From a virus, in IMG/VR virus record IMGVR_UViG_3300045391_004889, positions 32,001 to 96,000 of that record: DNA of 64,000 bases. One strand, 5' to 3'. A program made the translations under genes and the position numbers. Positions within the stretch are counted from its first letter, which is position 1. Each line of letters opens with the position of its first letter. Below are positions 39,600-57,697 of the stretch, piece after piece. Under the pieces are notes generated by a model that saw only the letters and a program-made list of their open reading frames with translations, ran no database searches and was not told where the DNA came from.

Positions 39600-39674
39600 T
39601 GGCTCCCCGCCGAGGATTCGAACCTCGAACGTCACGTCCAGAGCGTGGTGTGTTGCCAGTTACACCAACGGGGA
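39600..39674 (-). tRNA. tRNA-Gln(CTG), CCA encoded
   Basis: cloverleaf; loop CT-CTG-GA; T-loop TTCGAAT. Confidence 0.9.
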
Positions 39675-39679
39675 ACGAG

Positions 39680-39751
39680 GGTGACCGGTGGGACTTGAAC
39701 CCACAACGACCGCGACCACAACGCGACGCTCTACCATTGAGCTACGGCCAC
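39680..39751 (-). tRNA. tRNA-His(GTG)
   Basis: cloverleaf; loop TT-GTG-GT; C73. Confidence 0.9.
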
Positions 39752-39753
39752 AG

Positions 39754-39826
39754 CTCCCTCACCAGGGCTCGAACCTGGGACACCCGGATTAACAATCCGG
39801 TGCTCTGCCGACTGAGCTATAAGGGA
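39754..39826 (-). tRNA. tRNA-Asn(GTT)
   Basis: CCGGA-TT-GTT-AA-TCCGG arm; canonical D and T arms. Confidence 0.92.
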
Positions 39827-39827
39827 C

Positions 39828-39903
39828 TGGCATGCCCGGCAGGACTCGAACCTGCGACCAGTCGCTTTGGAGACGACCGCTCTGGCCACTGAGCTACGGA
39901 CAC
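39828..39903 (-). tRNA. tRNA-Trp(CCA), CCA encoded
   Basis: GTCGT-CT-CCA-AA-GCGAC arm. Confidence 0.92.
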
Positions 39904-39907
39904 ACGG

Positions 39908-39991
39908 CGGAAGAGACAGGATTCGAACCTGCGTGGGTGTTACCCCGCGTCATTAGCAGTGACGTGCCATCAGCCTCTCGGCCACTCTTCC
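39908..39991 (-). tRNA. tRNA-Ser(GCT)
   Basis: CGTCA-CT-GCT-AA-TGACG; long variable arm; G73. Confidence 0.9.
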
Positions 39992-39992
39992 A

Positions 39993-40090
39993 GGCAACCA
40001 GGTGATCAAGCTTCCCACGCAGGGGACGACTCCATCTGTAAGAAGTGGCTGCCACACCACCCCGATGTACGTCGCCCGATCAACCTGGCC
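39993..40090 (-). ncRNA. structured non-tRNA RNA of about 97 nt inside the tRNA array
   Basis: ends pair (GGCCAGGT-T-GATCGG / TTGATC-ACCTGGTT); nested stems inside; no T-loop or anticodon arm. Confidence 0.55.
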
Positions 40091-40093
40091 GAG

Positions 40094-40178
40094 CAGAGGG
40101 TGTAGGATTCGAACCCACGGAGCTGTCACACTCTACGGTTTTCAAGACCGCCGCCTTAGGCCACTCGGCCAACCCTCC
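40094..40178 (-). tRNA. tRNA-Ser(TGA)
   Basis: GCGGT-CT-TGA-AA-ACCGT; long variable arm. Confidence 0.9.
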
Positions 40179-40179
40179 G

Positions 40180-40254
40180 TACCACGCCCCGGATTCGAAC
40201 CGGGAACATCCTGTTCCTGAGACAGGCGCCTCTACCAAGTTGGGCCAGCGCGGC
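40180..40254 (-). tRNA. tRNA-Leu(CAG), short variable loop
   Basis: CCTGT-CT-CAG-GA-ACAGG; A73. Confidence 0.85.
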
Positions 40255-40270
40255 TTGTTCAGTTGTAGCG

Positions 40271-40341
40271 TGGTGCACCCAGGATTTGAACCTGGACGGG
40301 AGTGGTTTACAGCCACGCCGACTCAACCAGCGCTGTGCACC
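40271..40341 (-). tRNA. atypical tRNA-Tyr(GTA)
   Basis: acceptor GGTGCAC/GTGCACC-A; loop CT-GTA-AA; T-arm CCAGG-TTCAAAT-CCTGG; degenerate D-arm; no long variable arm. Confidence 0.65.
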
Positions 40342-40345
40342 CTAG

Positions 40346-40419
40346 TGGCGGGAGCGGGATTCGAACCCGCGACCTCAGGGTTATGAGCCCCACGCGCTAC
40401 CGAGCTGCGCCATCCCGCT
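40346..40419 (-). tRNA. initiator tRNA-fMet(CAT)
   Basis: CAT anticodon; three G-C pairs closing the anticodon stem; 1:72 mismatch (A-C). Confidence 0.88.
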
Positions 40420-41463: not shown

Positions 41464-41503
41464 TCTCTTCCTTCCGTCGCTTCCTTGATGACGTGGTACT
41501 GCG

Positions 41504-41576
41504 TCGAGATGGTGGGACTCGAACCCACGATCCCCTGCTCCCAAAGCAGGTGCCCTCGCCACTAGGCTACATCTCG
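41504..41576 (-). tRNA. tRNA-Pro(TGG)
   Basis: CCTGC-TT-TGG-GA-GCAGG; C1-G72, A73. Confidence 0.9.
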
Positions 41577-41668: not shown

Positions 41669-42925
41669 CTACGCCGCGGCGAGCGCCTCTTCCTGCTGCC
41701 GCTTCCACACGGGCTTCCAGTCCATCGACACGTCGATGAGCTTGTCACCCTGGTCGAGCTCCTCGCCCGTGTAGGTACCAGGGTTACCCTCGAGGGACGC
41801 CTTGACCCACTTGAGGAGCCATCGGGCCGGCGCGACTGAGGTTCCCTTGCCCCAGAACGCGTGCAGGCTGCTGGCGTCCTTGGCACCCTCGATCAGCCAG
41901 TCGTCGGGGAAGCCCATGATGCGAGCGACCTCGCGATGCGTGGCGAACCGCTGGTTGGGGTGCCACACCATGTACGGACCGGCACCGTTGACGACGCGAG
42001 CCGGCTCACTCCACGCCCAGTGGCGAGGCTTGCTGAAGCCACCCGCGTCGAAGTTGCGAGCGATCAGCTGGGCGTCCCGGGTGGTGGTGCCCTTGGCGGT
42101 CGGGTACTGCCACGACTCCGGCAACTGGCCGTACGTCTCGTAGTACCGCTTGAGGACGTGTGCCTCACTCTCGCCCGGCTTCCACTCCACCGAGGCGAGG
42201 TCCATGACGCGACGTGAGTACGCGTTCTCCGCCGGCACGTGACCGTCCACCTTGCCGCTCTCGGAGCGCAGGGACTCGCTCCACCAGGTGGGCTCCTGGA
42301 GGTACGGCTGCGCCGACCAGCTGATCGGCTGGTCCACCAGGTCGCGAAGCGCGTCACCCAGGACGGGCAGCTTGTCACCCAGCGGGTGGTGCTCCACGCC
42401 GAACGGGAACTGGGTCAGCACGAGGAAGTAGCGCTTCCGCTTGCTGACGCCGCCCACCGACCAGTTGTTCTGCAGCACGTGAGTGACGTGGTACTTCAGC
42501 CCGGTGTGCTCGTTCATGTAGCGGCCGAGCTCCCGCATGAGTGGCAGGCCCTTGGTGTACGCCTGGGCGACCGACTCCATGCAGACGAACTGCGGCTTGA
42601 CCTTCGCCGCGTACGTCATGATGTCGCGCATGCAGTTGTTGATCTCGGAGTCCATGCCGTGCATCTTGGAGCCGGCCGTCATGGACGAGAAGGCGCTGCA
42701 GGGTGGCGTGCCGATGACGCCGTCCGCCTCGATCGGCGTCCACTCCGCGGGCAGCGAGGCCTGGGCCTGCCACTCGTTGCCGAGGAGCTTGCGGTTGGCC
42801 TCCATCAGCGGGATGCCGAACCCCTGCTTGTTCTCCTTCTTGCCGACGAGGGTCATGCCCTCCTGCGCGGCTCCGCAGGAGAAGCCACCTGCGAAGCCGT
42901 AGACGTCGACGAACTTGATCGTCAC
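41669..42925 (-). CDS. divergent C5-cytosine DNA methyltransferase homologue
   Basis: motif I VDVYGFAGGF, IV GTPPCSAFS, VI MESV, VIII SKRKRYF, IX REVARIMGFPDDW, X WGKGTS. Confidence 0.85.
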   Translation of the reverse strand: MTIKFVDVYGFAGGFSCGAAQEGMTLVGKKENKQGFGIPLMEANRKLLGNEWQAQASLPAEWTPIEADGVIGTPPCSAFSSMTAGSKMHGMDSEINNCMRDIMTYAAKVKPQFVCMESVAQAYTKGLPLMRELGRYMNEHTGLKYHVTHVLQNNWSVGGVSKRKRYFLVLTQFPFGVEHHPLGDKLPVLGDALRDLVDQPISWSAQPYLQEPTWWSESLRSESGKVDGHVPAENAYSRRVMDLASVEWKPGESEAHVLKRYYETYGQLPESWQYPTAKGTTTRDAQLIARNFDAGGFSKPRHWAWSEPARVVNGAGPYMVWHPNQRFATHREVARIMGFPDDWLIEGAKDASSLHAFWGKGTSVAPARWLLKWVKASLEGNPGTYTGEELDQGDKLIDVSMDWKPVWKRQQEEALAAA

Positions 42926-42933
42926 GTGCTCTC

Positions 42934-44217
42934 CTAGCTGGCGCCGAGCGCCGTGAGGAACGTACGCGCCACAGCCTTGGGCGCGTGCTTGGTGGCGAGA
43001 ACGGTGCGGTTGCGCTGGGCGATCGTACGGCGCTGCGCGGTGTTGAGGGTGAGGATCTCCTCCACCGCCTCCCCGATGCCCTCCAGAACCTCGTGCCATG
43101 CCGGCTGGTTGGCCAGCTTCGACTCACCGGGCCAGGACGGCACGGACTCGAGAGCGCGACCCTCGAAGTCGTCGCTCCACATGGAGCTCACCGACACCTG
43201 CATGCAGCCGGCATCGATGGCCTCGAACTGGGAGTACTCCATGCCGTCCGAGAACTCGGAGGCGGTGAGATCCACGTGCACGTCCAGGTTGCGGCAGGCG
43301 TCGAAGCCCGACTCATAGCCACCCTTGTACTCGATCTGGGTGCCGCCAGGCGCGGTGACCTCCCAGAGGTACGGCCGGATGACGTCACCACCGGTCTCCG
43401 TACGCTCACCGGGCTTGATCACCCCGTGACGGATACCGGGAAGCGACAGCGGCTTGCCCAGCACCATCGCCTCGAAGGTCTTGTACGTGGCGGACGCGGC
43501 GAGGCTGAGAGAGGAGGCACCCCAGAGCTGGACGCGATCCGCGGACGGCATCAGGTCGAGCGCCGCCGCCATACCGAGCGCGTGGTGACCCTTGGTGGTG
43601 ATGTACCGCCCGGTGATGCCCACCACGTCGTTCGTCGCGTGACCGGCCAGCAGGTGAGAGTCCGGCTCCGTCTGCATCCGGTACGGCAGCGGCGACACCG
43701 TGAAGTCCACGTCCGGCCAGAGGTGACGGGACAGGTTGGGCGACGTCGGGGAGTGCGTCACCGCCGTGCCGAGGAAGTTCGGCCGCGTGAGGAGGTCCTT
43801 CACGTATGGCACCTCGCTCGGCGGGTAGTTGTTCCCGTGGAGCGCGAAGATGAACGGCGTCTGAGTGGCGGCGAGAACGTTGAGGTACTCCGGCGTGTCG
43901 GGGTCGAGGTAGCTCTTCCCCTTCGCCGCCTCCTTGTCCTGCATCACCGTGCGCACGTCGGTGAGAACGATGCGGTCGTACTGATCCAGCACGTAGCCGG
44001 CGTCCCGAAGACGGCCCACCACGTCGGGTGACCGGCCCCACCAGCGGATGCCCGGTCGCATGTTGCCCTCGCCCCAGACGGAGCGTGCCTTGCCGGACCG
44101 GGTGAAGGTCACCACGTCCGCCTCGTGTCCGTTCTCACGGAAGCCGTCGCGCAGGTGATACGCCCAAGCCATCGGGCCGCAGACCCGCGGCTCCGGTTCG
44201 AAGATGGCGATCCTCAT
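42934..44217 (-). CDS. GT-B glycosyltransferase (candidate DNA base glycosyltransferase)
   Basis: MRIAIF...G N-terminal strand; GRYITTKG; DGMEYSQFEAIDAGC resembling the GT4 E-x7-E motif. Confidence 0.75.
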   Translation of the reverse strand: MRIAIFEPEPRVCGPMAWAYHLRDGFRENGHEADVVTFTRSGKARSVWGEGNMRPGIRWWGRSPDVVGRLRDAGYVLDQYDRIVLTDVRTVMQDKEAAKGKSYLDPDTPEYLNVLAATQTPFIFALHGNNYPPSEVPYVKDLLTRPNFLGTAVTHSPTSPNLSRHLWPDVDFTVSPLPYRMQTEPDSHLLAGHATNDVVGITGRYITTKGHHALGMAAALDLMPSADRVQLWGASSLSLAASATYKTFEAMVLGKPLSLPGIRHGVIKPGERTETGGDVIRPYLWEVTAPGGTQIEYKGGYESGFDACRNLDVHVDLTASEFSDGMEYSQFEAIDAGCMQVSVSSMWSDDFEGRALESVPSWPGESKLANQPAWHEVLEGIGEAVEEILTLNTAQRRTIAQRNRTVLATKHAPKAVARTFLTALGAS

Positions 44218-44705
44218 CGCAGGTACTTCTCCTCGCACGTGGTGTCGCAGAACTGCTGGCCCTCGCTGCGACGGATGATCAGGGTGGCGTTCTGATGCGT
44301 GTCGTCGAACGCGCGGCCGCACTGCGTGCACTTGTTCGAGCCGTCGTAGCCGGTGGCCATACGCTGCTTGTTGACGTCGATCTTCTGCTGGTAGCGAACG
44401 GCCAGCTCCTCGTCGGAGCAGTTCACCGCGGTGAGCGCGTTGGCCACGAAGAAGAGCACGTCGACCATCTCACCGACGAACTTGTCACGGTTCTGCGCCC
44501 ACTTCTTCTCGCGGTTCTCAGCGGTGGCCCACGGCTTCCACGGAACCTCCTGCTGAGCCTCCGCCAGCTCCAGGAAGGCGGCGTTCAGGTTCATCGTGAC
44601 GTAGTCCGTCTTCGCGTTGACGTCCACCGCCATGCGCGGGTAGTCGATCTCGAACGTCTCCGCCTGGTACGCGCGCTGCGTGTGCAGCCACTCGTCGAAC
44701 TTCAC
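44214..44705 (-). CDS. all-alpha dimeric dUTPase/dCTPase (MazG superfamily) with C-terminal Zn motif
   Basis: ELAEAQQEVPWKPW...EMVDVLFF...Y..K...N..R; CTQC...FCDTTC. Confidence 0.82.
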   Translation of the reverse strand: MKFDEWLHTQRAYQAETFEIDYPRMAVDVNAKTDYVTMNLNAAFLELAEAQQEVPWKPWATAENREKKWAQNRDKFVGEMVDVLFFVANALTAVNCSDEELAVRYQQKIDVNKQRMATGYDGSNKCTQCGRAFDDTHQNATLIIRRSEGQQFCDTTCEEKYLR

Positions 44706-44745
44706 TTCATCTCTCTTCCGTCGTCACATCAGTCTACTGCGGTGG

Positions 44746-44791
44746 GTGACCGTCACCCTGGATCGTACCAGAGTGACGGTCACCACGTCAA
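44746..44791 (-). promoter_or_regulatory. promoter TTGACG-N18-TACGAT inside a hairpin
   Basis: GTGACCGTCAC...GTGACGGTCAC stem with the -10 in the loop; heads the dNTPase-GT-MTase unit. Confidence 0.6.
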
Positions 44792-44806
44792 CCCCCGTGG
44801 TGGGAG

Positions 44807-45421
44807 CTAGAAGGGCATGTCCGGCGGAGTGGCGGCGTCAGCGGGCGCCGCATCCTCCACCGGCTCGTCCTTCTTGGTCGACACCGGAGCCGGTGCCGGG
44901 GCAGGCGCCGGCTGAGGAGCCGGAGCGGGCTGAGGCTGGGGCTGAGCGACCGGCTGAGGAGCCGGAGCCGGCTGAGGCTGCGGAACCCCACCGCCCGCCG
45001 CGGGAGCCCCGCTCGGGGTGCCGAGTGCCTTCACGTTCTTGATCTCGTTCTTCTCCTCCTCGTTCCAGAGGCGGATGCCGACCTCCACCTCGCAGCTCTT
45101 GCCGACGAGGTCCGCGGCCACCTTCTCGAGCGGCGGGTTGGTGGCGAAGTACTCGTGGTTGAGACCGAGCGCCTTCATGTGGCGGAAGAAGAACCCGAGC
45201 GCCGTGCCGCTCTCGGGGCTGATCACGAAGTCGTTGAACAGCGTCTTGCCGCTCATCGGACCCGCGTTGATGGTGAACTGGACGTTGATCTTGTCCTTGC
45301 CGGTGCCGGTCTTCTTGGCCTCGGCCTTCTTGACCGTCACCGTGTACGGACCGGCCGGGACGGCGGAGAACCCCGCGTCGTCGGCCGCCTGCTTGAGGTC
45401 GCCCCAGTTGAAGGTTGCCAC
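44807..45421 (-). CDS. DUF669-like ssDNA-binding protein
   Basis: F..VPAG.Y.V.V..AE.K...G; Pro/Ala linker; acidic-aromatic tail DMPF. Confidence 0.8.
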   Translation of the reverse strand: MATFNWGDLKQAADDAGFSAVPAGPYTVTVKKAEAKKTGTGKDKINVQFTINAGPMSGKTLFNDFVISPESGTALGFFFRHMKALGLNHEYFATNPPLEKVAADLVGKSCEVEVGIRLWNEEEKNEIKNVKALGTPSGAPAAGGGVPQPQPAPAPQPVAQPQPQPAPAPQPAPAPAPAPVSTKKDEPVEDAAPADAATPPDMPF

Positions 45422-45441
45422 GTCAGACTCCGTTCAGTCGT

Positions 45442-46188
45442 TCACTTGCTGTGCGAGATGGTCGCGCCGGCGTTGGCGTCGTCATCACCGCGAATCATGG
45501 CGAGCATCTTGGTCACGTCGGGGTTGTCCAGGTACGGACCCAGACGTCCGCCCACGCGCTCACCCGTCTCGAAGCCCGGCGTCGGTCCCACGAAGAGCCG
45601 ACGTGCGGTGGAGATGCCGTCCTCCATCGTGACCAGCTGGAGGTAGGCGCAGATGTCCACGTAGTACGGCAGCGTCGTGGCCAGGGAACCCTGAACGTGA
45701 GGCTGCCAGACCCCACCGTCTCGCTGCCGAGCCATCGCGATGAAGATCACCGCGTCGAGGGGCTTGACCGGGTTCGTGGTGAGGTCCCGGAACTTGCGCA
45801 CCAGGTCGGACACCTGCCGAAGCAGCGTACCCCAGTCCTGAGTCTTCATCTGGTCGGTACCGGCGATGTCATCCACCGCTCGCTGCTGGATCTCCGAGAT
45901 GGAGTCCAGCACCACCGACTTGAACGGGTGCTTGCCGCTGTTGAGCCACTCGTACGCCTTGAGAACCGCGCGGTAGCTGTGCACCGGCACGATGGCGGTG
46001 TCCCACGCGTCACTCGGCTCCGGCGGCGCGTACTGCACCGGGTCCCAGTCGATCTTCTTGCTGGGGGTGAAGCGGCTGCCCATCTCCGCATCCAGGATCA
46101 GCCGTGGTGCCGGGGTGGTGTCACCCAGCCACGACTTGCCCTGCTTGCTGTGTCCGTAGACGATGGCGTTGATGCCGTAACTGGTCAA
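45442..46188 (-). CDS. AAA_24 / Sak4-like ATPase (ssDNA annealing)
   Basis: VYGHSKQGKS, ILDAE, VVLDSISE, QDWG. Confidence 0.85.
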   Translation of the reverse strand: MTSYGINAIVYGHSKQGKSWLGDTTPAPRLILDAEMGSRFTPSKKIDWDPVQYAPPEPSDAWDTAIVPVHSYRAVLKAYEWLNSGKHPFKSVVLDSISEIQQRAVDDIAGTDQMKTQDWGTLLRQVSDLVRKFRDLTTNPVKPLDAVIFIAMARQRDGGVWQPHVQGSLATTLPYYVDICAYLQLVTMEDGISTARRLFVGPTPGFETGERVGGRLGPYLDNPDVTKMLAMIRGDDDANAGATISHSK

Positions 46189-47156
46189 CCGTCACTTCCA
46201 TTCGTCGCTTCCGAGGTGAGAGACGCCCTCACCTGGTCCATCAGGCCCGTCCCATAGTACCCATACGGGTCAGCCTGCACGAAGTTGGCCTGGAGCGCCG
46301 CTTCCCAACGTGAACCGTCGTCCATCATCGGGCAGACGAGGGTGAACGGACACGCCCAGCTGCAGTAGTCACCCGGGTTCGGGTACGCGAGAGCGCGGTG
46401 GTCACCCCCGTTCCGCAACGTCTGGTCCACGAGCTTGAGCTCACTGGCCACGGTACGAACGCGAAGCATCATGCTCTGGTGGTCGTGCGCGTTGTACGAC
46501 ACCTCCACCTGCTTGAAGAACGGTCCGTTGGCCTTCGGCGTGCGCTTGGAGCGAAGGATCATGTTGTACAGTCCCCCGTCCGCTCGCTGACCGGTCTCGT
46601 CAGCCTCCAGGGTGTCCAGCAGGCTGTAGAACCGCATCTGCTCGTCGATGAGAAGCAGGTGCGCCTTCGACAGCGTGCCGACGGTCTTGAAGTCGCGGAA
46701 CCTGATGGCACCGTCACTGACGCGACGGACCTTCTGGTCGAGCTTCGCCATCAGGGTGACGGGCTCCCCGTCGTACAAGGTCAGCTCTCGCTGCACCACC
46801 TCCTCGGTGGCGATCACCTCGTGCTCCGAGTCGACGCCCTCGTCGTCCACCCACTGCAGGTAGCCGCTCACCATCGCCCTGGCGTAGCCGTGCTCACTGC
46901 TCAGCTGGTCCTCGTACAGCGGGTGCTCCCGCCGAGCGAGGTGATAAGCCACGTTCAACGCCGCGAGAGCGTCGAGGCCGTAGCCGTAGTGCGCCTCCAA
47001 GGCGAGGTGGACACGTGTGCCGAGCTGGGCGGAGCCCACCGGCTTCTGCCTGGTCGGGTCCACGCTGTAGCCCAGGTGGTACGCCAGGTACCAGTGCCTG
47101 CGGCACCGCTTGAACGTCCTCAGCGTGCTGTTGCTGACCTTCAGCTGCTCTGTCAC
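46185..47156 (-). CDS. PD-(D/E)XK exonuclease (Cas4/RecB-like)
   Basis: TFKRCRR.W, GT.VH, E...KLD...DFKT, Q...Y, C.W.CPF..C. Confidence 0.85.
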   Translation of the reverse strand: MTEQLKVSNSTLRTFKRCRRHWYLAYHLGYSVDPTRQKPVGSAQLGTRVHLALEAHYGYGLDALAALNVAYHLARREHPLYEDQLSSEHGYARAMVSGYLQWVDDEGVDSEHEVIATEEVVQRELTLYDGEPVTLMAKLDQKVRRVSDGAIRFRDFKTVGTLSKAHLLLIDEQMRFYSLLDTLEADETGQRADGGLYNMILRSKRTPKANGPFFKQVEVSYNAHDHQSMMLRVRTVASELKLVDQTLRNGGDHRALAYPNPGDYCSWACPFTLVCPMMDDGSRWEAALQANFVQADPYGYYGTGLMDQVRASLTSEATNGSDG

Positions 47157-48919
47157 TTCACCCCCAGCAGCTTCCGCAGGGTCTGCTCGTCTCTCACGAT
47201 CTCCTCCATCCGACCACGCTTCTCGGCCAGTACCTCGAGCTTATGCTCCTCGACTGTCTCCGGCGTGATCTGCTTGATGATGCGGATCGACTCGTGCCGC
47301 TCCGAACCGATGCGATAGATGCGGTCCTGAGCCTGCAGGTTCTGCACCTCACTGAAGCTCTCCTGCATGAAGAGCATGGTATCCGCCCTGGTGAGCGTGA
47401 TACCCTCCGCGCCGGCACCCAGGGTGAGCAGGATGACACGCGTGCGGCCGCCCTGGAAGGCGTCGATGGCCTCACGTCGCTCATCTGCGGACTGGGCCCC
47501 GGTGACGAGGCCGTGAGAGATCTTGGCGTCGGTGAGCTTCTTGGCGGCGAGCTCGATGAGCTGCCGCGAGACGGCAGCCACCACGAGCGGGTCCTCACCC
47601 ATCTCGCCGAGCAGGTCCATCAGGTCGTCCACCTTCGCAGACGGCGTGGTGAGCCTGACCTTCCCCTCCTCGTCGATCTCCGCGTACGCGGCGGCGAACT
47701 GCATGAGCCGCGTCAGCTGAGCGAGTGGGTTGGGTGCCACCAGAAGCTCGTTCAACCCGACGACCATCTCGTCGCGCATCTGACGATACGCGGTCTTCTG
47801 CTTGGCGGTCATCGGGGTGTGACGGTACTGCACCGGGAGCTTGGGAGGCAGGAACGGCAGTGCCGCCTCCTTGGGCACCCGACGAACGATCGGGTCCAGA
47901 ATGCGGTACAGCTCATCCTGGGTGTGCGGGTTGATGCCCACCACCTCGGCGCCACCGAAGAAGTTCAGCGACACCTGGGCGTAGCGGTCCATGAACCGCG
48001 TCTTGGCGGGAAACCACGTCGGCTCAACCGCGTGACCGAGAGACCAGATGTCACCCACGTGGTCAGCCACCGGCGTGCCGGTCATGTCCACGCGGAACCT
48101 GGCACCGTGAGCGATCGCCCACGCCGCCCTGGTCTGCTTCGAGCGAGGGTCCTTGAGACGGTGTGCCTCGTCCATGAGGACGGTGCGCAGTCCCATCTCG
48201 TTGAGCTCCTTCGCCGTCTTCTCGTTCTCCGTCATCTCGACGTTGCCGTATGGCGCGAGACGAGAGTGAAGCCGCAGCGCGTCCCAGTTGATCACGTACA
48301 CGTCCGCCGCCGCGGTGAGCTGCTTGCGCCGCCCACCGGCGCCACCGTCGATCACCTGCACCTTGAGCTCGGGTGCCCACATGCGGAGCTCCTTGAGCCA
48401 CGCCGCGAACTTGAGACTGTTGGGGCAGATGACAACCGCGGGGAACGGCTGCTCGTCGAGGTGCTGGAGCACCTGCATGAACCTGATGGCGACACCGGTC
48501 TTGCCGAGCCCGGGTGGGTTCGCCAGGATGGCACGCTCGTTCACGAGCAGGAACTTCACGTCGACACGCTGATACGGGTAGAGCTTGAGCGCGCTGCCCG
48601 CCTCCACCGCGTCGAGCTCCGGGAAGTCCCGAAGCTCCTCGGGGAAGTCGAGCGAGTTGCGGAGGGCGAGAGCGGGAGCGATGCGCTTCTCCCTGGTCTC
48701 CCACGCCCACGTCTGGAGCTCCTCTCCGAGCTCGAGAGCGTTCCCGAAGATGCCGCGCAAGGCGATGCAGGTGGACCAGCTCAGGGGAGCCAGCCAACCT
48801 CCGTCCGACCTGCTGTAGCGTGCACCAGGAAGCTCCGTCATGAGATGGCGGTCCTGGTACGTCGTGTTCACGAAGATGTGTGTTGCGTTGCCGCTACGGG
48901 TGAGGTCGGCCTTAGGCAC
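47153..48919 (-). CDS. SNF2-family helicase
   Basis: PGLGKT, DEAH, TGTP, GAEGITLT, QAQDRIYRIG. Confidence 0.92.
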   Translation of the reverse strand: MPKADLTRSGNATHIFVNTTYQDRHLMTELPGARYSRSDGGWLAPLSWSTCIALRGIFGNALELGEELQTWAWETREKRIAPALALRNSLDFPEELRDFPELDAVEAGSALKLYPYQRVDVKFLLVNERAILANPPGLGKTGVAIRFMQVLQHLDEQPFPAVVICPNSLKFAAWLKELRMWAPELKVQVIDGGAGGRRKQLTAAADVYVINWDALRLHSRLAPYGNVEMTENEKTAKELNEMGLRTVLMDEAHRLKDPRSKQTRAAWAIAHGARFRVDMTGTPVADHVGDIWSLGHAVEPTWFPAKTRFMDRYAQVSLNFFGGAEVVGINPHTQDELYRILDPIVRRVPKEAALPFLPPKLPVQYRHTPMTAKQKTAYRQMRDEMVVGLNELLVAPNPLAQLTRLMQFAAAYAEIDEEGKVRLTTPSAKVDDLMDLLGEMGEDPLVVAAVSRQLIELAAKKLTDAKISHGLVTGAQSADERREAIDAFQGGRTRVILLTLGAGAEGITLTRADTMLFMQESFSEVQNLQAQDRIYRIGSERHESIRIIKQITPETVEEHKLEVLAEKRGRMEEIVRDEQTLRKLLGVK

Positions 48920-48997
48920 TCGTCACCTCGTCCCGGGCTGAACAAGTGACAGAATGGTGCAGTGTCACTTCCTGATCCTTCCCGCTTGACCTGGTCA

Positions 48998-49026
48998 ATC
49001 TTACCAGCCGATCAGCCAGGTGTAAA
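48998..49026 (-). promoter_or_regulatory. promoter TTTACA-N17-TAAGAT
   Basis: consensus match with extended -10 TGG; CAGGAA downstream. Confidence 0.7.
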
Positions 49027-49476
49027 CAATTTCCCGATCAGGTGAGTGGGCAGTCGCTTCTCCCGAAGCAGCCACGCCAGCAGGTGGTTCGCCGCGTCAT
49101 TGGCGTGGCGCATGTTCGGCTGTCGCCACCCGAGTCGCTGCAGCTTGAGGTCGCCACCAAGCTTTCGACTTGCGGATGGCATCGGCTGAAGCACCGTCAC
49201 GCTGTTCCGACGGCAAGCCGACTTCACCGCGCCGATGACCTCGAGGCTGTACTCCGGCGTGCCGGTACGACCGCCACCCTGAGTGACGATGTACCGCTCC
49301 CAGCCGAGCCAGAGGTTGTCGCGCATGAGATGGCACCACATGTTCACCATGTCGTCGATGCCGTCGAAGTCAGCCTGGCCACTGCTGAAGGACGCCATGT
49401 CCTCCAGCATCGCCCACCCCGTCATCTTGCCGGGGTCGAGCCAGATGACGATCTTCGGGTCGGGTGGCTTCATCAC
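49012..49476 (-). CDS. RuvC-like nuclease/resolvase
   Basis: LDPGKMTGWA, E, H..DA..H motifs. Confidence 0.75.
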   Translation of the reverse strand: MMKPPDPKIVIWLDPGKMTGWAMLEDMASFSSGQADFDGIDDMVNMWCHLMRDNLWLGWERYIVTQGGGRTGTPEYSLEVIGAVKSACRRNSVTVLQPMPSASRKLGGDLKLQRLGWRQPNMRHANDAANHLLAWLLREKRLPTHLIGKLFTPG

Positions 49477-49487
49477 CTGGAGCCTGC

Positions 49488-51257
49488 TCACACCTTCTGC
49501 CACCTCTCCGGGAGAATGTCCGCACCTGCCGTGAGGCGGACGCGGTAGCCGTCAAGGTCGGTCATACACTCCTCGATCACACGAGCCACCTCATCTGCCT
49601 GGTCACGTGGGACGTCAGCGATGATCTCGTCGTGCACCGGCACCAGGAGGAACTCATCCACCCCGGCTGCCTCCATCCGCGTCACGCAGATCTTGAAGTA
49701 CTCCGCCGCGTGACCCTGGATCAAGCTGTTGAGACCCTGTGTGAAAGCGCGGTCCCGATCCAGCGGGATGTGACGGCCGAGCGGCGTGACGATGTACGGC
49801 TTGTCACGCGCGATGGCCTCCTCGTAGATGCGATTCAACGTGGTCTGAAGTCCGGGATACGTCGCGTTGAAGCCGTCTGCGACAGGCTGCATCTGCTCGA
49901 ACGGCACACCGGCGGTCTGCGCCATCTTCCTGGTGCCCGCGCCGTACAGTGACGAGTACACCACGTTCTTGGTCAGCTGACGACGTGGATCCTTCTTGAG
50001 GATCTCCTCGCCGTAGATGCCGCCAGCGACGCCACAGAAGAAGTCCGTGCCAAACTCATCCGCGTCGTTGAATGCCTTGATCAGGCCCTCGTCCTCGCTG
50101 AAGTGAGCACCGAGTCGAGCCTCCACCTGGTTCAGGTCACACGTGATCAGCACGTTGCCGTCACGCGAGATGAACGAGCCACGGATCATCTTGTCGTCAC
50201 GTGGCAAGTTCTGCAGGTTCGGGTCCGACATCGACATGCGACCGGTACGAGCAGCCAGGGTGTTGATGCTGGCGTGCAGGATGCCGTCAGCATCCGCCAT
50301 CGCCATGAAGTTGTCGAGGTACGTGCCCTGCAGCTTGACGGCGTGACGCACCGCCAGGATGTAGCGGATCAGCTCCGCCGCCTGGGGTCCACTGGTCAGC
50401 TGGTACCGCTCCAGGTTGTCCTTGTCCATCTTCGGGGCACCCTGGTCGGTGAAGGCGTCGATCTCCACCCCGAGAGCCGTCAGCACGCGGGAGATCTGTC
50501 CCGCACTGAGCACGCTGGTGATGCCGTACGTCGCCTTGAGCCACGCCTTCGCCTGCTCGGTGAAGGCAGACAGCCGCAGCTGCTCAGCTTGGATGTACCC
50601 CGGGTCGAGGCGCATGCCCTTCATCATCATCCTGCTGCAGATGCGGACGATCGCCATCTCGAGGTCATACACCATCGGGAAGCGAGCCTGCACGTCAGGG
50701 ATGATCTTCTCGTACAGGTGACAGTTGAGCACCGGGTCGAGAGCGGCGTAGAGCCAATATGGCTCAAAGTCGATGGGGACGGTGTCCCACGTCCACTTCT
50801 GCTGCCGCATACCGTCGTCGAGAAGCTTCTGACCGGTGAGTGCCGCAGGATCCACGAGCCTCGAGGTAAGTGGCTTCAAGCCGGCCGGCCTCGTCGGGTC
50901 CTGAATACGAGCACCGATCAGAGTGTCGTGGCAACGATTCCACGGCACCTTCCAGCCGGCCTTGATCTCCATGAACTTGGCGTCGTGAGGCAGGTTGTGC
51001 CACGTGAACTCGCCCTCGTACGAGTTCAAGATCTCGAGAGCACCACCGCCCCACTGGTCCCAGGGGACACACCAACCGTGGTGCTTGTCGCCCACCTGGA
51101 TGGTGCGGAGCCGGGTGTGCCAGGGTGACAAGCCACCCGACTCCGTGTCGACACCCATCGGCGTCTCTCGTCGTTCCCCCGCCCATCGTTTCATCTCCAT
51201 CAAGTCATCGATGGATTGGACGAGGTGAAGCTGCATGGTGGACAGAAGTCCGCTCAC
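49488..51257 (-). CDS. polA: family A DNA polymerase with 3'-5' exonuclease
   Basis: DTE, HN..D, YAALD exonuclease motifs; TGRMS, DLNQVEAR, R...K...Y...YG, VHDE. Confidence 0.95.
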   Translation of the reverse strand: MSGLLSTMQLHLVQSIDDLMEMKRWAGERRETPMGVDTESGGLSPWHTRLRTIQVGDKHHGWCVPWDQWGGGALEILNSYEGEFTWHNLPHDAKFMEIKAGWKVPWNRCHDTLIGARIQDPTRPAGLKPLTSRLVDPAALTGQKLLDDGMRQQKWTWDTVPIDFEPYWLYAALDPVLNCHLYEKIIPDVQARFPMVYDLEMAIVRICSRMMMKGMRLDPGYIQAEQLRLSAFTEQAKAWLKATYGITSVLSAGQISRVLTALGVEIDAFTDQGAPKMDKDNLERYQLTSGPQAAELIRYILAVRHAVKLQGTYLDNFMAMADADGILHASINTLAARTGRMSMSDPNLQNLPRDDKMIRGSFISRDGNVLITCDLNQVEARLGAHFSEDEGLIKAFNDADEFGTDFFCGVAGGIYGEEILKKDPRRQLTKNVVYSSLYGAGTRKMAQTAGVPFEQMQPVADGFNATYPGLQTTLNRIYEEAIARDKPYIVTPLGRHIPLDRDRAFTQGLNSLIQGHAAEYFKICVTRMEAAGVDEFLLVPVHDEIIADVPRDQADEVARVIEECMTDLDGYRVRLTAGADILPERWQKV

Positions 51258-51304
51258 TCACGCGCCTTTCTGAGTGAATTCGATTCCTGGACGTTCCTGG
51301 TGTC

Positions 51305-51784
51305 TTATCCTATCGTACGAGGCAGATAGGTGTATCGAACGACCACGAGACCGGCATCGTGGAGCAGACTTTCCATCTCACGAGGACGACGATAGTCGTC
51401 ACCACCGGTGTCTCGGTAGACCACGCACGCGAGACCGGAGTTGCCGATCTGTTTGGCGCAGTTGAGACACGGTGACGTGGAGACGTAGATGGTGCCACCT
51501 TGGATCCGCTCGTGGTTCGCGCGAATGAGCGCGTTGGCCTCAGCGTGGATCGTCTGGCAGCGGCTGTAGTCGGGTGACGTGTCCCCGGTGATGGCTCGTT
51601 CACACCACTGGTCGCACGTCCCCTCCAGTTCCAGGCCCGAGATCGGACCGTTGTACGACGTGGAGTCGATCTTGTTATCGGTGGTGACGATGACTGCCCC
51701 AACCTGAGCACGCACGCACGGACTGCGTCGCCCGAGCAGGACAGCCACCCCCATCCACGTGTCATTCCACGTGGTGCGGATCAA
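51305..51784 (-). CDS. dCMP deaminase family protein
   Basis: RS.C...QVGA, YNG, IHAEANA, PCLNC; TTGA overlap with the upstream stop. Confidence 0.9.
   Translation of the reverse strand: MIRTTWNDTWMGVAVLLGRRSPCVRAQVGAVIVTTDNKIDSTSYNGPISGLELEGTCDQWCERAITGDTSPDYSRCQTIHAEANALIRANHERIQGGTIYVSTSPCLNCAKQIGNSGLACVVYRDTGGDDYRRPREMESLLHDAGLVVVRYTYLPRTIG
51307..51336 (-). promoter_or_regulatory. promoter GATACA-N18-TAGGAT
   Basis: near-consensus; leader CCAGGAACGTCCAGGAA before polA. Confidence 0.55.
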
Positions 51785-52716
51785 CTGCACTCCTGGCACC
51801 GCCACTCCGACGACATCATCGCCTCGTTGAGCACGTACCAGCAGTTGAGACACAGCTTGAACTGTGGCTGCGCCAGTCGCGGCACGTTGGTACGGTACCA
51901 CCGTTCCGCCGTGCTGCTGGCGATCGAGCCGTCGCCCGTGGCGAGCTTGCGCGCCATCTGGGTGATCGCCTGGAAGTTCTGCCACGGCATCATGTGCTCG
52001 GTGACGCGGTCAGTCAGCGCGGGTGGGACGCTGATGTCCACCGGCACCCCGACTCCCTGGTCCACGATGCGCTGAGCCTCGGCCACGTCACGCTCGTAGA
52101 GGTGCTGGCTGCCGATGGCGTGGGTATATGACCCGACCTTGACGCCGAGGCACGCAGCCACCACCATCTGGAGACGGCTGAACATCAGCCAGTCGTACGG
52201 GATGCCCAGGTAGACGTCGGAGCTCCGCATGTTGACACGCAGGTGGAGCTCACCGTCACGCAGCAGGAACTGACCACCTGTGGTGCACGGGACGTCGTGA
52301 GTGACGACCTCGTGCTCCTCGCCGTTCCAGATGGTGAAGTATGCCTGCCTGGTCTGCGGCTGGCTCTGCAGGAGGTGCACGACCTGCTGGAGCTGGCGGT
52401 ACAGCCGTGGGCCGTAGGCACCCCTGAGCCTGCCTCCGTCGGCGAACTGGGAGAACCTACCCCCGGATGCCTGGTCAAGCTGCTCAAGGCTGCTGAGGCC
52501 CGCCAGCAGGTGCAGCGTCTCGGTTGCCGCGATGCGGCGGTTGAACCGTCGGGCGGTACCGGCCACGTGAGCCTGGGTGCCATCCTTGACGGTCACGGTG
52601 ACGTTGAGCAGTTCCCGGGTGTCGAACCCACGTGGTGCTGACCCGGTGTCACTCTCAAGCAGGGCGGCGAGAAGCTGGACGTACGCCTCTCGCCCCGTGT
52701 CGGTCACGAGCTCCAC
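51781..52716 (-). CDS. thymidylate-synthase-fold enzyme, predicted dCMP hydroxymethylase/methylase
   Basis: AYGPR, DVPCT, MRSSDVYLGIPYD (Asp where dUMP-specific ThyA has Asn), SQHLYE. Confidence 0.85.
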   Translation of the reverse strand: MELVTDTGREAYVQLLAALLESDTGSAPRGFDTRELLNVTVTVKDGTQAHVAGTARRFNRRIAATETLHLLAGLSSLEQLDQASGGRFSQFADGGRLRGAYGPRLYRQLQQVVHLLQSQPQTRQAYFTIWNGEEHEVVTHDVPCTTGGQFLLRDGELHLRVNMRSSDVYLGIPYDWLMFSRLQMVVAACLGVKVGSYTHAIGSQHLYERDVAEAQRIVDQGVGVPVDISVPPALTDRVTEHMMPWQNFQAITQMARKLATGDGSIASSTAERWYRTNVPRLAQPQFKLCLNCWYVLNEAMMSSEWRCQECS

Positions 52717-53672
52717 TGTGCGGCCTCCTGAATCGTCTGGGCGTATTCAGCGAGCTCACTGTGGTGGAAACGCTTCCACCACTGAGGGTGCGGGATCTTG
52801 GTGTGCTTCACCAACGCACGGTCGAGCGCCTGGCTGGCGTGGTTGCCGAGTGCCACGATGTTCAGGCTGTACGGCACCTCGTGGAGCTTGACGAGCCTCG
52901 TGCCGTCCTCGTTGGCGTTGAGGATGCCCACGCCCCGGTGCATCTTGGCCTGGACCAGCGCCCGCATGAGGTACAAGGCGGACCCTGCCTGGTCCCACGG
53001 GGTGAAGGCTCGGGGAAACTCGAGCCGCGCTCTGGGACCGTCGTTGCGTTGGTCACCCACGAGCAGCACACCTGGTGCCACGCTACCGACGTAGCCGGGC
53101 AGCCGGTGCGGTGAACCGTCGTACGGCTCCTCGTCGTACGACATGGCCTGCGCCGCGTTCAGCATGAACGTCGTGCTGAGGTTGGACGCGCGGTGATAGC
53201 CGTAGGTCTTGGCGTGGTTCTCGTACCAGTCGTGGACCTGAGCCACGTGATCCAACCGCAGAAAGTCCTCGCCCCGCTCCTTGAGCCGGGTTGTCACCTC
53301 CGCCGGGTCCTCCGGCTGCACCAACAGCTTGAGAGCACCCAGAGCGGAGAGCAGCATCTCGATGTGGAGCATTCCGGCGTCATCGATGCGTCCGCCACCG
53401 CGGTACAGCTGACCGTAGATGATCTCCCCGGCGTGCCACCGGTCCATCACCACCAGGTGATGACGAGAGTGGATCATGCGGAGCATCTTGGGCTCCTCGA
53501 GCGGGAGCTCGTACTCCTGGAAGGCATCCAGGCCGGGTTCCGGCTGTCCCTTGTGGGTGACCACCGTACGCACCAGAGCCGGGTGCGGGTGTCGGGCACC
53601 GTGTGTCGCCACGAGCTGTCGGACCAGGGTGGACTTGCCACCGCCGTCCACGCCCTCACAGATGATCAGCAA
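52704..53672 (-). CDS. dNMP kinase fused to a UDG-superfamily-like domain
   Basis: ICEGVDGGGKST, DRWH..E..YG, RGE; C-terminal LLVGDQ...N...IVALGN.A...PHP. Confidence 0.8.
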   Translation of the reverse strand: MLIICEGVDGGGKSTLVRQLVATHGARHPHPALVRTVVTHKGQPEPGLDAFQEYELPLEEPKMLRMIHSRHHLVVMDRWHAGEIIYGQLYRGGGRIDDAGMLHIEMLLSALGALKLLVQPEDPAEVTTRLKERGEDFLRLDHVAQVHDWYENHAKTYGYHRASNLSTTFMLNAAQAMSYDEEPYDGSPHRLPGYVGSVAPGVLLVGDQRNDGPRARLEFPRAFTPWDQAGSALYLMRALVQAKMHRGVGILNANEDGTRLVKLHEVPYSLNIVALGNHASQALDRALVKHTKIPHPQWWKRFHHSELAEYAQTIQEAAQWSS

Positions 53673-56661: not shown

Positions 56662-56877
56662 TCAGATGAGCCACTTGATAAGGTCGAAGATCAGAACGAA
56701 GACGACGGCGAGGATCGCCATCACGAACGCGAAGAGGAGCAAGCAACACCCCAGTCCCGTCGTCACTGCGATCGTCGTGGCGAGTGGCCCCTCGTTTCCG
56801 GTGCCGTCCTCCATGGCGGAGGTGACTCGGTCACGGAGGGGCTTCTCGTACTTGCTGCTCACGTGTACCTCTCTCAC
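56662..56877 (-). CDS. small membrane protein
   Basis: long hydrophobic C-terminal segment. Confidence 0.55.
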   Translation of the reverse strand: MREVHVSSKYEKPLRDRVTSAMEDGTGNEGPLATTIAVTTGLGCCLLLFAFVMAILAVVFVLIFDLIKWLI

Positions 56878-57368
56878 TGGAGGGCGAGGACGTCTCGCCG
56901 ACGGAGCCGGCGGATGGCGACCCCACCCTCGGCCTTGCAGACGGCGCGCACCTGGCCAGACTCAGCCCGTGCCTTACCGAGCACCTTGCCGAACGGGTGG
57001 TTCAGGCCATCCGTGTTGAGCTCGACCTGGATGATCTCGTGACCGGTCTTGCTCTTGATGGACCACCAGTCGGTGATCTCGTCGGGGTCAGCCGGCGCGG
57101 GCAGCTCCAGCTGGAAGGTGCCGCGGTGCACGGTGTAGTGCGTGACGCGGTCGAGACGCAGGGTGCGGCGGTCGTGACGGAGGCGGCACATGACCACCAG
57201 GGTCAGCTCGCCGGCCTTCGTCTGACGGATGGAGTACGGCTCAACCGTGCGAACGGTCTCGTTCCCGTGCTCGTCGACGTAGGTGACGGTGACCGGCTGC
57301 TTGCGGCTGATCGCCCTGTGGATGTTCAGCACCATCTCGAGCTCGGTCTCGTGCTTGGTCGTCCGCAT
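56874..57368 (-). CDS. stand-alone WYL domain protein
   Basis: AI....V.V.Y....G..T.R.VEPY...L...C.LR...RT.RLDR. Confidence 0.85.
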   Translation of the reverse strand: MRTTKHETELEMVLNIHRAISRKQPVTVTYVDEHGNETVRTVEPYSIRQTKAGELTLVVMCRLRHDRRTLRLDRVTHYTVHRGTFQLELPAPADPDEITDWWSIKSKTGHEIIQVELNTDGLNHPFGKVLGKARAESGQVRAVCKAEGGVAIRRLRRRDVLALQ

Positions 57369-57406
57369 CTTCCTCGCCTCTTCCTCTTCCTGTTCCTTCC
57401 TGCTGG

Positions 57407-57697
57407 TTACAGCATACCAGTACACGAGCCGAATGTAAACAGCAAGCGTGCCCGTGCCTCACGTTCACGTTCCCGCTCACGGCGGTGGAGGATGACAGCA
57501 TGCCGCACGCACGCGATGAGCGACCGGTCCAACCTGATGGCCAGGTCAGTGCGCTGGGTCCAGGTGTACCGGTCCCAGCGCTTGAGCAGCAGCTCGTCCT
57601 CCGCCTTGGTCCACTTGACCTGACGGTCCTTACCGGCGGGCAAGGTGCGACGGTTGTAGTGCCGCACCTTGCGCCAGTAGCGCTCTGATCCGGTCAC
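57407..57697 (-). CDS. SANT/Myb-like HTH protein
   Basis: WTKAEDELL......LAIRLDRS..AC..H pattern. Confidence 0.6.
   Translation of the reverse strand: MTGSERYWRKVRHYNRRTLPAGKDRQVKWTKAEDELLLKRWDRYTWTQRTDLAIRLDRSLIACVRHAVILHRREREREREARARLLFTFGSCTGML
57411..57439 (-). promoter_or_regulatory. promoter TTTACA-N17-TATGCT
   Basis: consensus; leader CAGCAGGAAGGAACAGGAA. Confidence 0.7.

Follow-up and report, generated by a model that had tools for sequence, protein, structure and literature searches.

A candidate T4-type pathway for glycosylated hydroxymethylcytosine, built around a family A polymerase, in an uncultured phage of a probable actinobacterial host

A split candidate module for cytosine replacement

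Examining a 64,000-nucleotide stretch of the virus record IMGVR_UViG_3300045391_004889 (hereafter "the window"; bases 32001–96000 of a complete 107,985-bp IMG/VR record with direct terminal repeats), we found a set of nucleotide-metabolism and DNA-modification genes that, in our moderately confident judgment, most likely directs a pre-replicative, T4-type replacement of cytosine by 5-hydroxymethylcytosine (5hmC), followed by glycosylation on the DNA. The genes form two clusters. One encodes a dTMP-kinase-like P-loop kinase fused to a uracil-DNA glycosylase (UDG)-superfamily domain, a thymidylate synthase (TS) homolog and a dCMP deaminase, and the other encodes an all-alpha nucleoside triphosphate (NTP) pyrophosphohydrolase (hereafter the NTPase), a glycosyltransferase (GT) of the GT-B fold and an atypical cytosine-C5 methyltransferase (C5-MTase) homolog; between them lies a replication block that includes a family A DNA polymerase (PolA). 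The G+C content of the window is ~64%, and the host of this uncultured 108-kb phage is probably a high-GC actinobacterium. Having identified genes by Pfam, PHROG and NCBIfam scans together with inspected translations, we show here which genes are present, which diagnostic residues and folds their products have and how synteny is conserved, and from these we infer every substrate and product named below.

In the proposed pathway, the NTPase would hydrolyze dCTP (and probably dUTP as well) to the monophosphate, depleting dCTP and feeding the TS homolog, which would add the methylene group of methylenetetrahydrofolate (CH2-THF) to C5 of dCMP and hydrate it to give 5-hydroxymethyl-dCMP (5hm-dCMP). 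The dTMP-kinase-like domain would convert this to 5hm-dCDP, a host nucleoside diphosphate (NDP) kinase would supply the triphosphate, PolA would incorporate 5hm-dCTP, and a retaining GT-B enzyme resembling T4 alpha-glucosyltransferase (AGT) and GT4 enzymes would move a hexose from a host NDP-sugar onto 5hmC in DNA. The deaminase would meanwhile feed dUMP to the host thymidylate synthase, since the phage has no dUMP-type ThyA or ThyX of its own (a hidden Markov model (HMM) search of the whole 108-kb genome found no ThyX), and the UDG-like domain would remove uracil (or 5-hydroxymethyluracil, hmU) from phage DNA. An earlier note, made from the sequence alone, had proposed the core of this scheme (a dCMP-type TS homolog, a kinase, an all-alpha NTPase, incorporation by PolA and a GT-B enzyme acting on DNA), and our analyses support that core as far as sequence goes. 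The core association is also already in print, as metavirome contigs obtained by selection for modified cytosine were enriched for neighborhoods of TS, deaminase, PRA-PH and PolA genes (NEB MetaGPA; bioRxiv 2024.12.05.627091).

The reference system is the glucosyl-5hmC pathway of T4, which comprises the gp56 dCTPase/dUTPase, the gp42 dCMP hydroxymethylase, the gp1 dNMP kinase, the cd deaminase and alpha- and beta-glucosyltransferases. The activities predicted for the studied phage match this set: an all-alpha NTPase, a TS-fold enzyme that carries Asp at both N177 and L143 (E. coli numbering), a kinase, a deaminase and a GT-B enzyme whose top Foldseek match is AGT. The pathway is nonetheless built from other protein lineages than those of T4, and it uses a family A replicase where T4 uses family B. 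Its kinase resembles dTMP kinases and is joined to a UDG domain; its TS homolog carries a zinc ribbon and is nearer to MilA than to TS, with T4 gp42 not among the 60 Protein Data Bank (PDB) matches listed; and it has neither a dTMP synthase nor a dihydrofolate reductase (DHFR) of its own. Further differences from T4 are that the genes are split around the replication block and that a C5-MTase homolog with Lys in motif X (the "Lys-type" family) is a constant extra member of the module.

Diagnostic residues of the TS homolog

Residues that separate the TS-type enzymes by substrate and product have been described (PMC13326640; Lee et al. 2026): Asn at position N177 goes with dUMP as substrate and Asp with dCMP, position L143 is hydrophobic in ThyA and acidic (Asp or Glu) in T4 gp42 and MilA, both hydroxymethylases, and D169 is replaced by Asn in 5-hydroxy-dCMP synthases. 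Evaluating the TS homolog at these positions, with C146 as the catalytic residue, we found that HDVPCT supplies D143 and C146 and that RSSDVYLGIPYD supplies D169 and D177; the corresponding residues in its own numbering (D141, C144, D167, D175) are invariant in a 29-member family alignment. Asp at the N177 position recurs in 117/117 TS homologs, with GIPYD aligning with the MilA Asp and the TS Asn. Among PDB entries, the CMP hydroxymethylase MilA matches best (E 1.6e-27, against 5e-17 for the best thymidylate synthase), and the alignment sets both MilA Asp residues opposite Asp of the TS homolog. The motifs on which the earlier note relied, NMRSSDVYLGIPYD and VPCT, are both present in identical form, and its proposal of dCMP specificity from the Asn-to-Asp change holds, now joined by Asp at L143 and the retained D169. 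Judging from these residues, the enzyme most likely makes 5hm-dCMP. A 5-hydroxy-dCMP synthase of the RB69 gp48 type was considered and rejected because D169 is retained (RSSD).

Cofactor use points the same way. Methyl transfer oxidizes tetrahydrofolate and hydroxymethylation does not, so the lack of any DHFR in an HMM search of the whole 108-kb genome fits hydroxymethylation.

The NTPase matches the dUTPase_2 family (PF08761, E 7.3e-6, 26.8 bits against a cut-off of 22.9) and the PHROG dUTPase (E 4.9e-18); a sequence search of it against the PDB returned only zinc-finger noise. In all relatives examined it stands immediately upstream of the C5-MTase homolog, or is parted from it only by the variable genes described below. 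Both the NTPase and the TS homolog end in zinc-ribbon tails, CxxC...CxxxC in the former (with weak zf-FCS and DUF7576 matches) and CxxC...CxxC in the latter, where the four Cys are invariant or nearly so in the family; these could be common docking tails for a nucleotide-synthesis or replisome complex. Some other Asp-type TS homologs (P0078, P0086, P0087, P0110 and others) are fused to Endonuclease_7 (PF02945).

A kinase fused to a probable uracil-repair domain

The kinase-UDG fusion was modeled with a predicted local distance difference test (pLDDT) score of 89.6, and its N-terminal domain resembles SPbeta YorR (Z 14.2; profile E 1.4e-10) and the M. tuberculosis thymidylate kinase (Z 13.2). 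Residues 198–338 align over ~130 residues with the UDGs of T. maritima and T. thermophilus (family 4/5) and with UdgX (Z 10.7–10.8), and with the UDG domain of phiLo PolA (Z 10.0). Foldseek also supported the UDG fold (E 2e-3), and the protein-language-model Atlas gave a lead to PF03167. The fusion is kept in 35 homologs and in gp29 of Stenotrophomonas phage AXL3. Matching positions by inspection, we found LLVGD (motif A) and PHPQ (motif B) where phiLo has LLVGE and LNHP; across 36 sequences G222, H311 and P312 are invariant and D223 is at least 90% conserved. The domain contains no Cys and therefore no Fe-S cluster, so that the four-Cys cluster of family 4 is missing.

In phages with modified thymidine PolA carries a fused, active UDG, and the phiLo domain uses a catalytic Glu and His (PMC13697223). 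Like those of SP-15, YerA41 and phiLo, the UDG-like domain of the studied phage is family-4-like, has a motif-A carboxylate and a motif-B His, and is joined to a replication or nucleotide enzyme; unlike them, its partner is a nucleotide kinase rather than a polymerase, its genome is predicted to be C-modified rather than T-modified, and its motif-A carboxylate is Asp where phiLo has Glu. Because it has catalytic-type residues, the UDG-like domain is probably a repair enzyme; we take it to be a uracil-type glycosylase, probably active, that would guard a genome made in a dUMP-rich pool. The earlier note had taken the UDG-like domain as a sign of chemistry unlike that of T4; uracil repair explains it better, given the PolA-UDG precedent and the motif residues.

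A glycosyltransferase in a variable sugar slot

Family scans gave no Pfam, PHROG or NCBIfam match for the 427-aa GT, and none of its 34 homologs has a Pfam domain. Its alignment-based AlphaFold model (pLDDT 93.4, predicted template modeling score 0.91) places it in the GT-B fold, of the retaining GT4/AGT type, from which the acceptor is not readable. The top Foldseek PDB match is AGT with UDP and DNA (1y8z, E 8e-11), and by VIA-align AGT also gives the longest alignment (339 residues, Z 25.3), with the GT4 enzymes PimA, HepE and BshA tied with it (Z 25–27, within 1.4). Among viral models the best matches are a GT of Gordonia phage GMA2 (E 3e-20), a GT of SP-15 and the S-TIM5 "DNA alpha-GT". 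The reading of the protein as a GT has the support of fold and synteny, and its predicted acceptor, 5hmC in duplex DNA, that of gene context.

To place the GT in its gene neighborhood, we compared every module protein by tblastn with 80 related IMG/VR loci and with fetched phage records. The conserved order that emerged begins with orf474, orf118, kinase-UDG, TS, deaminase, PolA, orf163 and SNF2, and continues with PD-(D/E)XK, AAA_24, the single-stranded DNA-binding (SSB) protein, NTPase, a variable slot, the C5-MTase homolog, orf272 and orf207. The two-cluster layout around the replication block is also seen in IMG/VR relatives, Micrococcus phage Kurnik and Actinomycetia phage DSL-LC01, and because the order recurs in these genomes the arrangement is not chance; among cultured phages, Kurnik and the Gordonia phages GMA2, GodonK and Sixama have this layout too.

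The slot between the NTPase and the C5-MTase homolog changes from genome to genome. It holds the AGT-like GT in the studied phage, is empty in the relatives G003 and G004, holds a 372-aa protein and a UDP-galactopyranose mutase (PF03275, E 5.8e-24) in G001, a homologous GT and a UDP-galactopyranose mutase in DSL-LC01, and two to four GTs of three families in Kurnik, GMA2, GodonK and Sixama, with three to four in the first three of these. Correcting the earlier note, the AGT-like GT is an accessory part of the module: it is absent from 5/5 of the nearest complete relatives. The G001 372-aa protein showed no relation to the studied GT by profile comparison, and one of its nearest Atlas clusters, a lead only, has 40% of members with the T4 beta-glucosyltransferase (BGT) family. 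In G001 (IMG/VR 3300048904_000313; slot region L092:880-4285) and DSL-LC01 (slot region L099:8911-13946) a Methyltransf_23 protein is present as well. The combination of BGT-like protein, mutase and Methyltransf_23 in relatives suggests, from gene content, that their hmC carries galactofuranose and possibly a methyl group. In the DSL-LC01 paper the mutase was taken for an auxiliary gene of the cell wall; a hypervariable glycosylation cassette inside a nucleotide-modification operon fits DNA glycodiversification, and a cell-wall role is difficult to reconcile with that operon setting.

A second glycosyltransferase is encoded outside the window (L097:2013-3077, equal to G000:22013-23077). It is a GT-A family 2 enzyme (PF00535, E 2.9e-17; GtrB-like by PHROG) and could add a further sugar or have the host envelope as its target.

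A homologous module in a phage with restriction data

In AXL3, gp27-30 are, in a row, homologs of the deaminase, the Asp-type TS, the kinase-UDG fusion and the NTP pyrophosphohydrolase. The AXL3 TS has KDVPCT and RSSDVWLGVPYD, and a 327-aa protein is homologous to the entire kinase-UDG fusion, including a PHPQ(W/Y)WKRF motif. AXL3 DNA resists 35/35 tested enzymes with G/C in the recognition site and is cut by both A/T-only cutters, TasI and Tru1I (AATT, TTAA) (PMC7504290). With resistance confined to G/C sites, the module common to both phages would modify C and not T. The AXL3 TS is without a zinc-ribbon tail.

A Lys-type relative of the C5 methyltransferases

Although annotated by family as a C5-MTase, the sixth protein of the module departs from that family at several motif residues. 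The motifs FAGGF, TPPCS, ESV, RKR, GFPDD and WGKGTSV can be recognized, and in a 10-member alignment spanning all lineages, together with an HMM alignment to M.HaeIII and DNMT1-type enzymes, motif IX is kept, as are the catalytic Pro-Cys (motif IV), the Glu of motif VI and the arginines of motif VIII (P74, P75, C76 and E117 invariant). In motif X, however, Gly-Asn has become Gly-Lys in 10/10 members (WGKGTSV against IGNAVPV), the Gly before PPC is replaced across the family by Thr, Ser, Asn or Cys (Thr here), and the Gln after the catalytic Cys by Ser, Ala or Thr (Ser here); motifs II and III have no invariant acidic column in this alignment, which is loose in that region. A library-wide search revealed 162 cluster representatives of this Lys-type family at E <=1e-30, and among the best 150 of them Gly before PPC and Gln after Cys each occur in 0/120 and motif-X Lys in 65/77 scorable sequences. 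Within a collection of 50,697 phage records the family is found only in actinophages.

The homolog is a core partner in these phages. It occurs together with a D143/D169/D177 TS in 11/11 lineages checked (the studied phage, five IMG/VR relatives, Kurnik, DSL-LC01, GMA2, GodonK and Sixama), and it is present in 5/5 of the nearest complete relatives. The note had treated it as an enzyme added to a T4-like set, a description that these counts correct; its suspicion of chemistry unlike that of T4 was justified, for this enzyme only, by the motif-X Lys.

M.HhaI Q82 and N304 are the positions that are enlarged to admit bulky analogs of S-adenosylmethionine (SAM), and by sequence the pocket of the Lys-type family is remodeled exactly at the residues facing the transferred group. 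A close parallel is CmoX of the CmoA-CmoX-CmoY 5-carboxymethylcytosine system of Synechococcus phage S-B43, in which Arg350 stands in the place of Asn304 of M.HhaI and contacts carboxy-SAM at its carboxylate, motif IV reads SPPC and, as its authors note, the arrangement mirrors engineered M.MpeI N374K (PMC12783734; Yang et al. 2025). The Lys-type homolog shares with CmoX and M.MpeI N374K a basic residue at the motif-X Asn, and with CmoX a hydroxyl residue for the Gly before PPC (TPPC here). It differs in having Lys rather than Arg (TPPC + Lys here, SPPC + Lys in GMA2), in accompanying a pre-replicative TS-type pathway, and in the lack of CmoA or a CmoY-like ligase in the studied phage; an HMM search of the whole 108-kb genome found no CmoA (TIGR00740). 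In three metagenomic cluster representatives (P0248, P0259 and P0275, 835–996 aa) a Lys-type homolog is fused to Methyltransf_23, 37–46% identical to the G001 and AXL3 proteins; this fusion to a class-I methyltransferase fold recalls the CmoX-CmoA pairing, and it appears to link the two proteins functionally in some phages. Methyltransf_23 proteins stand in the module of G001, DSL-LC01, AXL3 and MW202510, and AXL3 and MW202510 have one without a PF00145 protein, the reverse of the studied phage, so the two methyltransferase-fold proteins are not obligate partners. Reading the relatives' Methyltransf_23 proteins as CmoA found no support, NCBIfam and the PDB giving generic class-I methyltransferases (UbiG, MitM).

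A different precedent for a cytosine-C5 transferase gene adjoining a DNA GT gene is provided by phage MT-5mYOX(TET)-GT clusters, which glycosylate 5hmC after replication (PMC8256090, Burke 2021; bioRxiv 2023.12.21.572611, Pyle 2023). In the studied phage the hydroxymethyl group is predicted to come from a TS homolog before replication. An HMM search of the 108-kb genome found no Tet_JBP (PF12851), with control genomes giving no match either, and Pfam and PHROG scans of ~30 further open reading frames (ORFs) in and outside the window found no dioxygenase, sugar-nucleotide enzyme or amide ligase, several ORFs being left without an assignment. As no TET/JBP gene was detected, that route is unsupported.

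We raise tentatively, as possible though short of probable, that the Lys-type homolog is a natural cytosine-C5 transferase that is not a methylase and is allied with a TS-type hmC pathway. Our best guesses are that it may use an altered SAM cofactor to place a carboxymethyl group, or another group that is not methyl, on cytosines missed by replacement, or that it may apply Cys-C6 covalent chemistry to 5hmC by way of an exocyclic-methylene intermediate, exchanging or priming the hydroxymethyl group. If so, these actinophages, the cultured Gordonia and Micrococcus phages among them, would have an as yet undescribed cytosine derivative as the final base.

Weighing the proposed pathway against other routes

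Several points weigh against 5hmC replacement with glycosylation on the DNA. A coupled deaminase and a sole TS-type enzyme without ThyA or ThyX is also the pattern of Xp12-type 5-methylcytosine (5mC) phages, the residue-143 rule is a correlation from few tested enzymes, and, as MilA demonstrates, the same TS subtype can act in free-nucleotide pathways too. By Z, the modeled GT fold is equally near the non-DNA GT4 enzymes PimA, BshA and TarM, and the nearest complete relatives that lack the AGT-like GT retain every other gene. Complete replacement by 5hmC would moreover leave a C5-acting transferase with no substrate, which implies either partial replacement or a different reaction. The literature that we searched holds no report of DNA chemistry for Kurnik, DSL-LC01, GMA2, GodonK, Sixama or relatives.

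The main rival is the 5mC route itself, in which the TS homolog would make 5m-dCMP, the kinase and PolA would put 5mC into DNA, the deaminase would turn part of the 5m-dC pool to thymidylate, the C5-MTase would methylate leftover C and the GT would have its targets elsewhere; we judge this account unlikely. The Xp12 TS-type enzyme is reported to be a validated 5m-dCMP synthase (bioRxiv 2024.12.05.627091), the PaMx74 enzyme is 73% identical to it, and like the studied phage these two have a gene for an Asp-type TS immediately followed by one for a dCMP deaminase, and a nucleotide hydrolase close by. The translational coupling of TS and deaminase without ThyA or ThyX fits the reasoning set out for Xp12 and metavirome deaminases, 5/7 deaminase-linked Asp-type TS homologs tested made 5mdC (both bioRxiv 2024.12.05.627091), and a cytosine-C5 transferase would be sensible as a backstop. 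The two systems part, however, at the TS and around it: in Xp12 and PaMx74 residue 143 is Asn, the catalytic Cys lies in PCP (KNVPCP, RNVPCP) and a DHFR gene adjoins the TS-deaminase pair, whereas the studied phage has a family-invariant Asp143, PCT, no DHFR and a GT. The best PDB match of its TS homolog is a hydroxymethylase, the C5-MTase homolog is without the canonical SAM-pocket residues, and DNA-GT-like genes and the UDP-sugar mutase, both of which need a hydroxyl acceptor, recur in the module of relatives.

A thymine-analog route, in which 5hm-dCMP would be deaminated to 5hm-dUMP and phosphorylated so that hmU replaces T and is then glycosylated by the GT, seems to us very unlikely. It would make sense of the TS-deaminase gene coupling, the dTMP-kinase type of the kinase and the dUTPase_2 family of the NTPase; T4 AGT was crystallized with HMU-containing DNA, the GT of SP-15, a T-modified phage, is a structural neighbor, and seven metavirome deaminases gave 5hmdU from 5hmdC nucleotides (bioRxiv 2024.12.05.627091). 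The AXL3 digests speak against it, TasI and Tru1I cutting DNA that is resistant at all G/C-containing sites, which indicates C rather than T. A dUMP hydroxymethylase is the simpler route and the one that hmU phages use, a uracil-type glycosylase domain in the same operon would conflict with hmU DNA unless it excludes hmU, and the locus has no 5-hmdU DNA kinase or hmU-tailoring gene, unlike Brevibacterium phage LuckyBarnes. Slightly less likely again is that no base is replaced and that nucleotide salvage (dTMP supply, dUTP sanitation), an envelope or protein GT and an anti-restriction methylase merely lie near the replication genes. Published readings of DSL-LC01 (cell-wall auxiliary metabolic genes, anti-restriction methylase) and AXL3 (thymidylate pathway) run this way, and cell-envelope GT4 enzymes are just as near to the GT in fold. 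Yet Asp at N177 is the experimentally established dUMP-to-dCMP switch and is found in 117/117 relatives, so an ordinary dTMP synthase is excluded as the identity of the TS homolog; the DNA of AXL3 does resist restriction, and the gene set occurs together in 11/11 lineages.

LuckyBarnes, a match in the TS searches, was also considered as a model for the studied phage and rejected, being a probable hmU system with an Asn-type TS loop. Its locus (L002:6004-10019) encodes a 517-aa TS with that loop, two TET-associated GTs (PF20691), which its record names "beta-glucosyl-HMC-alpha-glucosyltransferase", and a 5-hmdU DNA kinase (PF18723, E 4.6e-68). Its gene content makes it a probable example of hmU hypermodification in a cultured actinophage.

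Significance of the proposed 5hmC pathway

Searching the literature, we found no report of glycosylated hydroxymethylcytosine in any actinophage or any phage with a family A polymerase. We think it rather probable that these actinophages carry out the chemistry of T4 with other parts: PolA, a kinase fused to a UDG domain, a TS homolog and an NTPase with zinc-ribbon tails, an exchangeable sugar cassette and a Lys-type C5-transferase that is always present. The module occurs in Gordonia phages of the SEA-PHAGES type, which are easy to grow, and in a Micrococcus phage, so that cultured relatives offer a direct test of the prediction. The variable sugar slot, ranging across relatives from an AGT-like GT to BGT-like GTs, small GTs and a UDP-galactofuranose supply, suggests that nature has built a range of different DNA glycans on a single scaffold. 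The Lys-type C5-transferase family may offer new DNA chemistry and, since engineered M.MpeI N374K already serves carboxymethyl labeling, a new tool enzyme. These results also correct published annotations of such genes as thymidylate synthesis or cell-wall auxiliary genes.

Locus, gene boundaries and neighboring genes

The module belongs to a run of minus-strand genes that spans ~39.6 kb to 60 kb of the window (Table 1). All eight genes that the earlier note had named were recovered on the minus strand at the coordinates it gave, by family scans and inspected translations. A nucleotide search of the 12-kb region against the 50,697 phage records returned no match.

Table 1. Features of the modification module and its surroundings, in window coordinates.
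Feature	Coordinates	Strand	Evidence
C5-MTase homolog, atypical, 418 aa	41669..42925	-	PF00145 E 4.8e-20
GT-B glycosyltransferase, candidate DNA 5hmC GT, 427 aa	42934..44217	-	fold model; no family match
All-alpha NTP pyrophosphohydrolase (dUTPase_2/MazG-like), candidate dCTPase	44214..44705	-	PF08761, PHROG dUTPase
Sigma-70-like promoter match 5' of NTPase-GT-MTase genes	44762..44791	-	TTGACG-18-TACGAT, 9/12, consensus match only
Replication/recombination block: DUF669 SSB-like, AAA_24, PD-(D/E)XK nuclease, SNF2 helicase, unassigned 163-aa ORF	44807..49503	-	Pfam; order kept in relatives
PolA, family A polymerase with 3'-5' exonuclease	49488..51257	-	PF00476 E 1.1e-58; PF01612 E 4.6e-6
dCMP deaminase	51305..51784	-	PF00383 E 2.2e-18; PHROG dCMP deaminase E 5.6e-42
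TS homolog, predicted dCMP hydroxymethylase, C-terminal 4-Cys zinc ribbon	51781..52716	-	PF00303 E 4.2e-24
dTMP-kinase-like P-loop kinase fused to UDG-superfamily domain, 322 aa	52704..53672	-	PHROG thymidylate kinase E 5e-14
tRNA array, nine genes	39600..40419	-	
tRNA-Pro	41503..41576	-	
Two conserved genes, 118 aa and 474 aa	53733..55533		no family match
WYL-domain protein	56874..57425	-	E 5e-13

Gene boundaries are tight throughout the module. The kinase-UDG gene starts, at the coordinate given in the earlier note, with a TTG preceded by a GAAGGGA ribosome-binding site; the TTG start of the deaminase, which has HAE and PCxxC motifs, overlaps the TS stop as TTGA, giving translational coupling; the GT ATG abuts the NTPase stop; and the C5-MTase homolog has a likely GTG start 8 nucleotides past the GT stop. 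The promoter to which the NTPase-GT-MTase cluster had been assigned exists as a site, as a consensus match only, with three sites of such quality in 15 kb against 1.1 expected.

Turning to the surroundings, a lone tRNA-Pro gene lies directly downstream of the C5-MTase homolog, beyond which is an array of nine tRNA genes; GMA2 and Sixama likewise have tRNA arrays near the corresponding module. Directly upstream of the kinase are the conserved 118-aa and 474-aa genes, which also stand 5' of the kinase in G001, L010 and L014 and could be module members. Farther along the same strand is a gene for a WYL-domain protein, and beyond the window the genome encodes a Prim-Pol and D5_N primase-helicase pair (L098:1898-4746).

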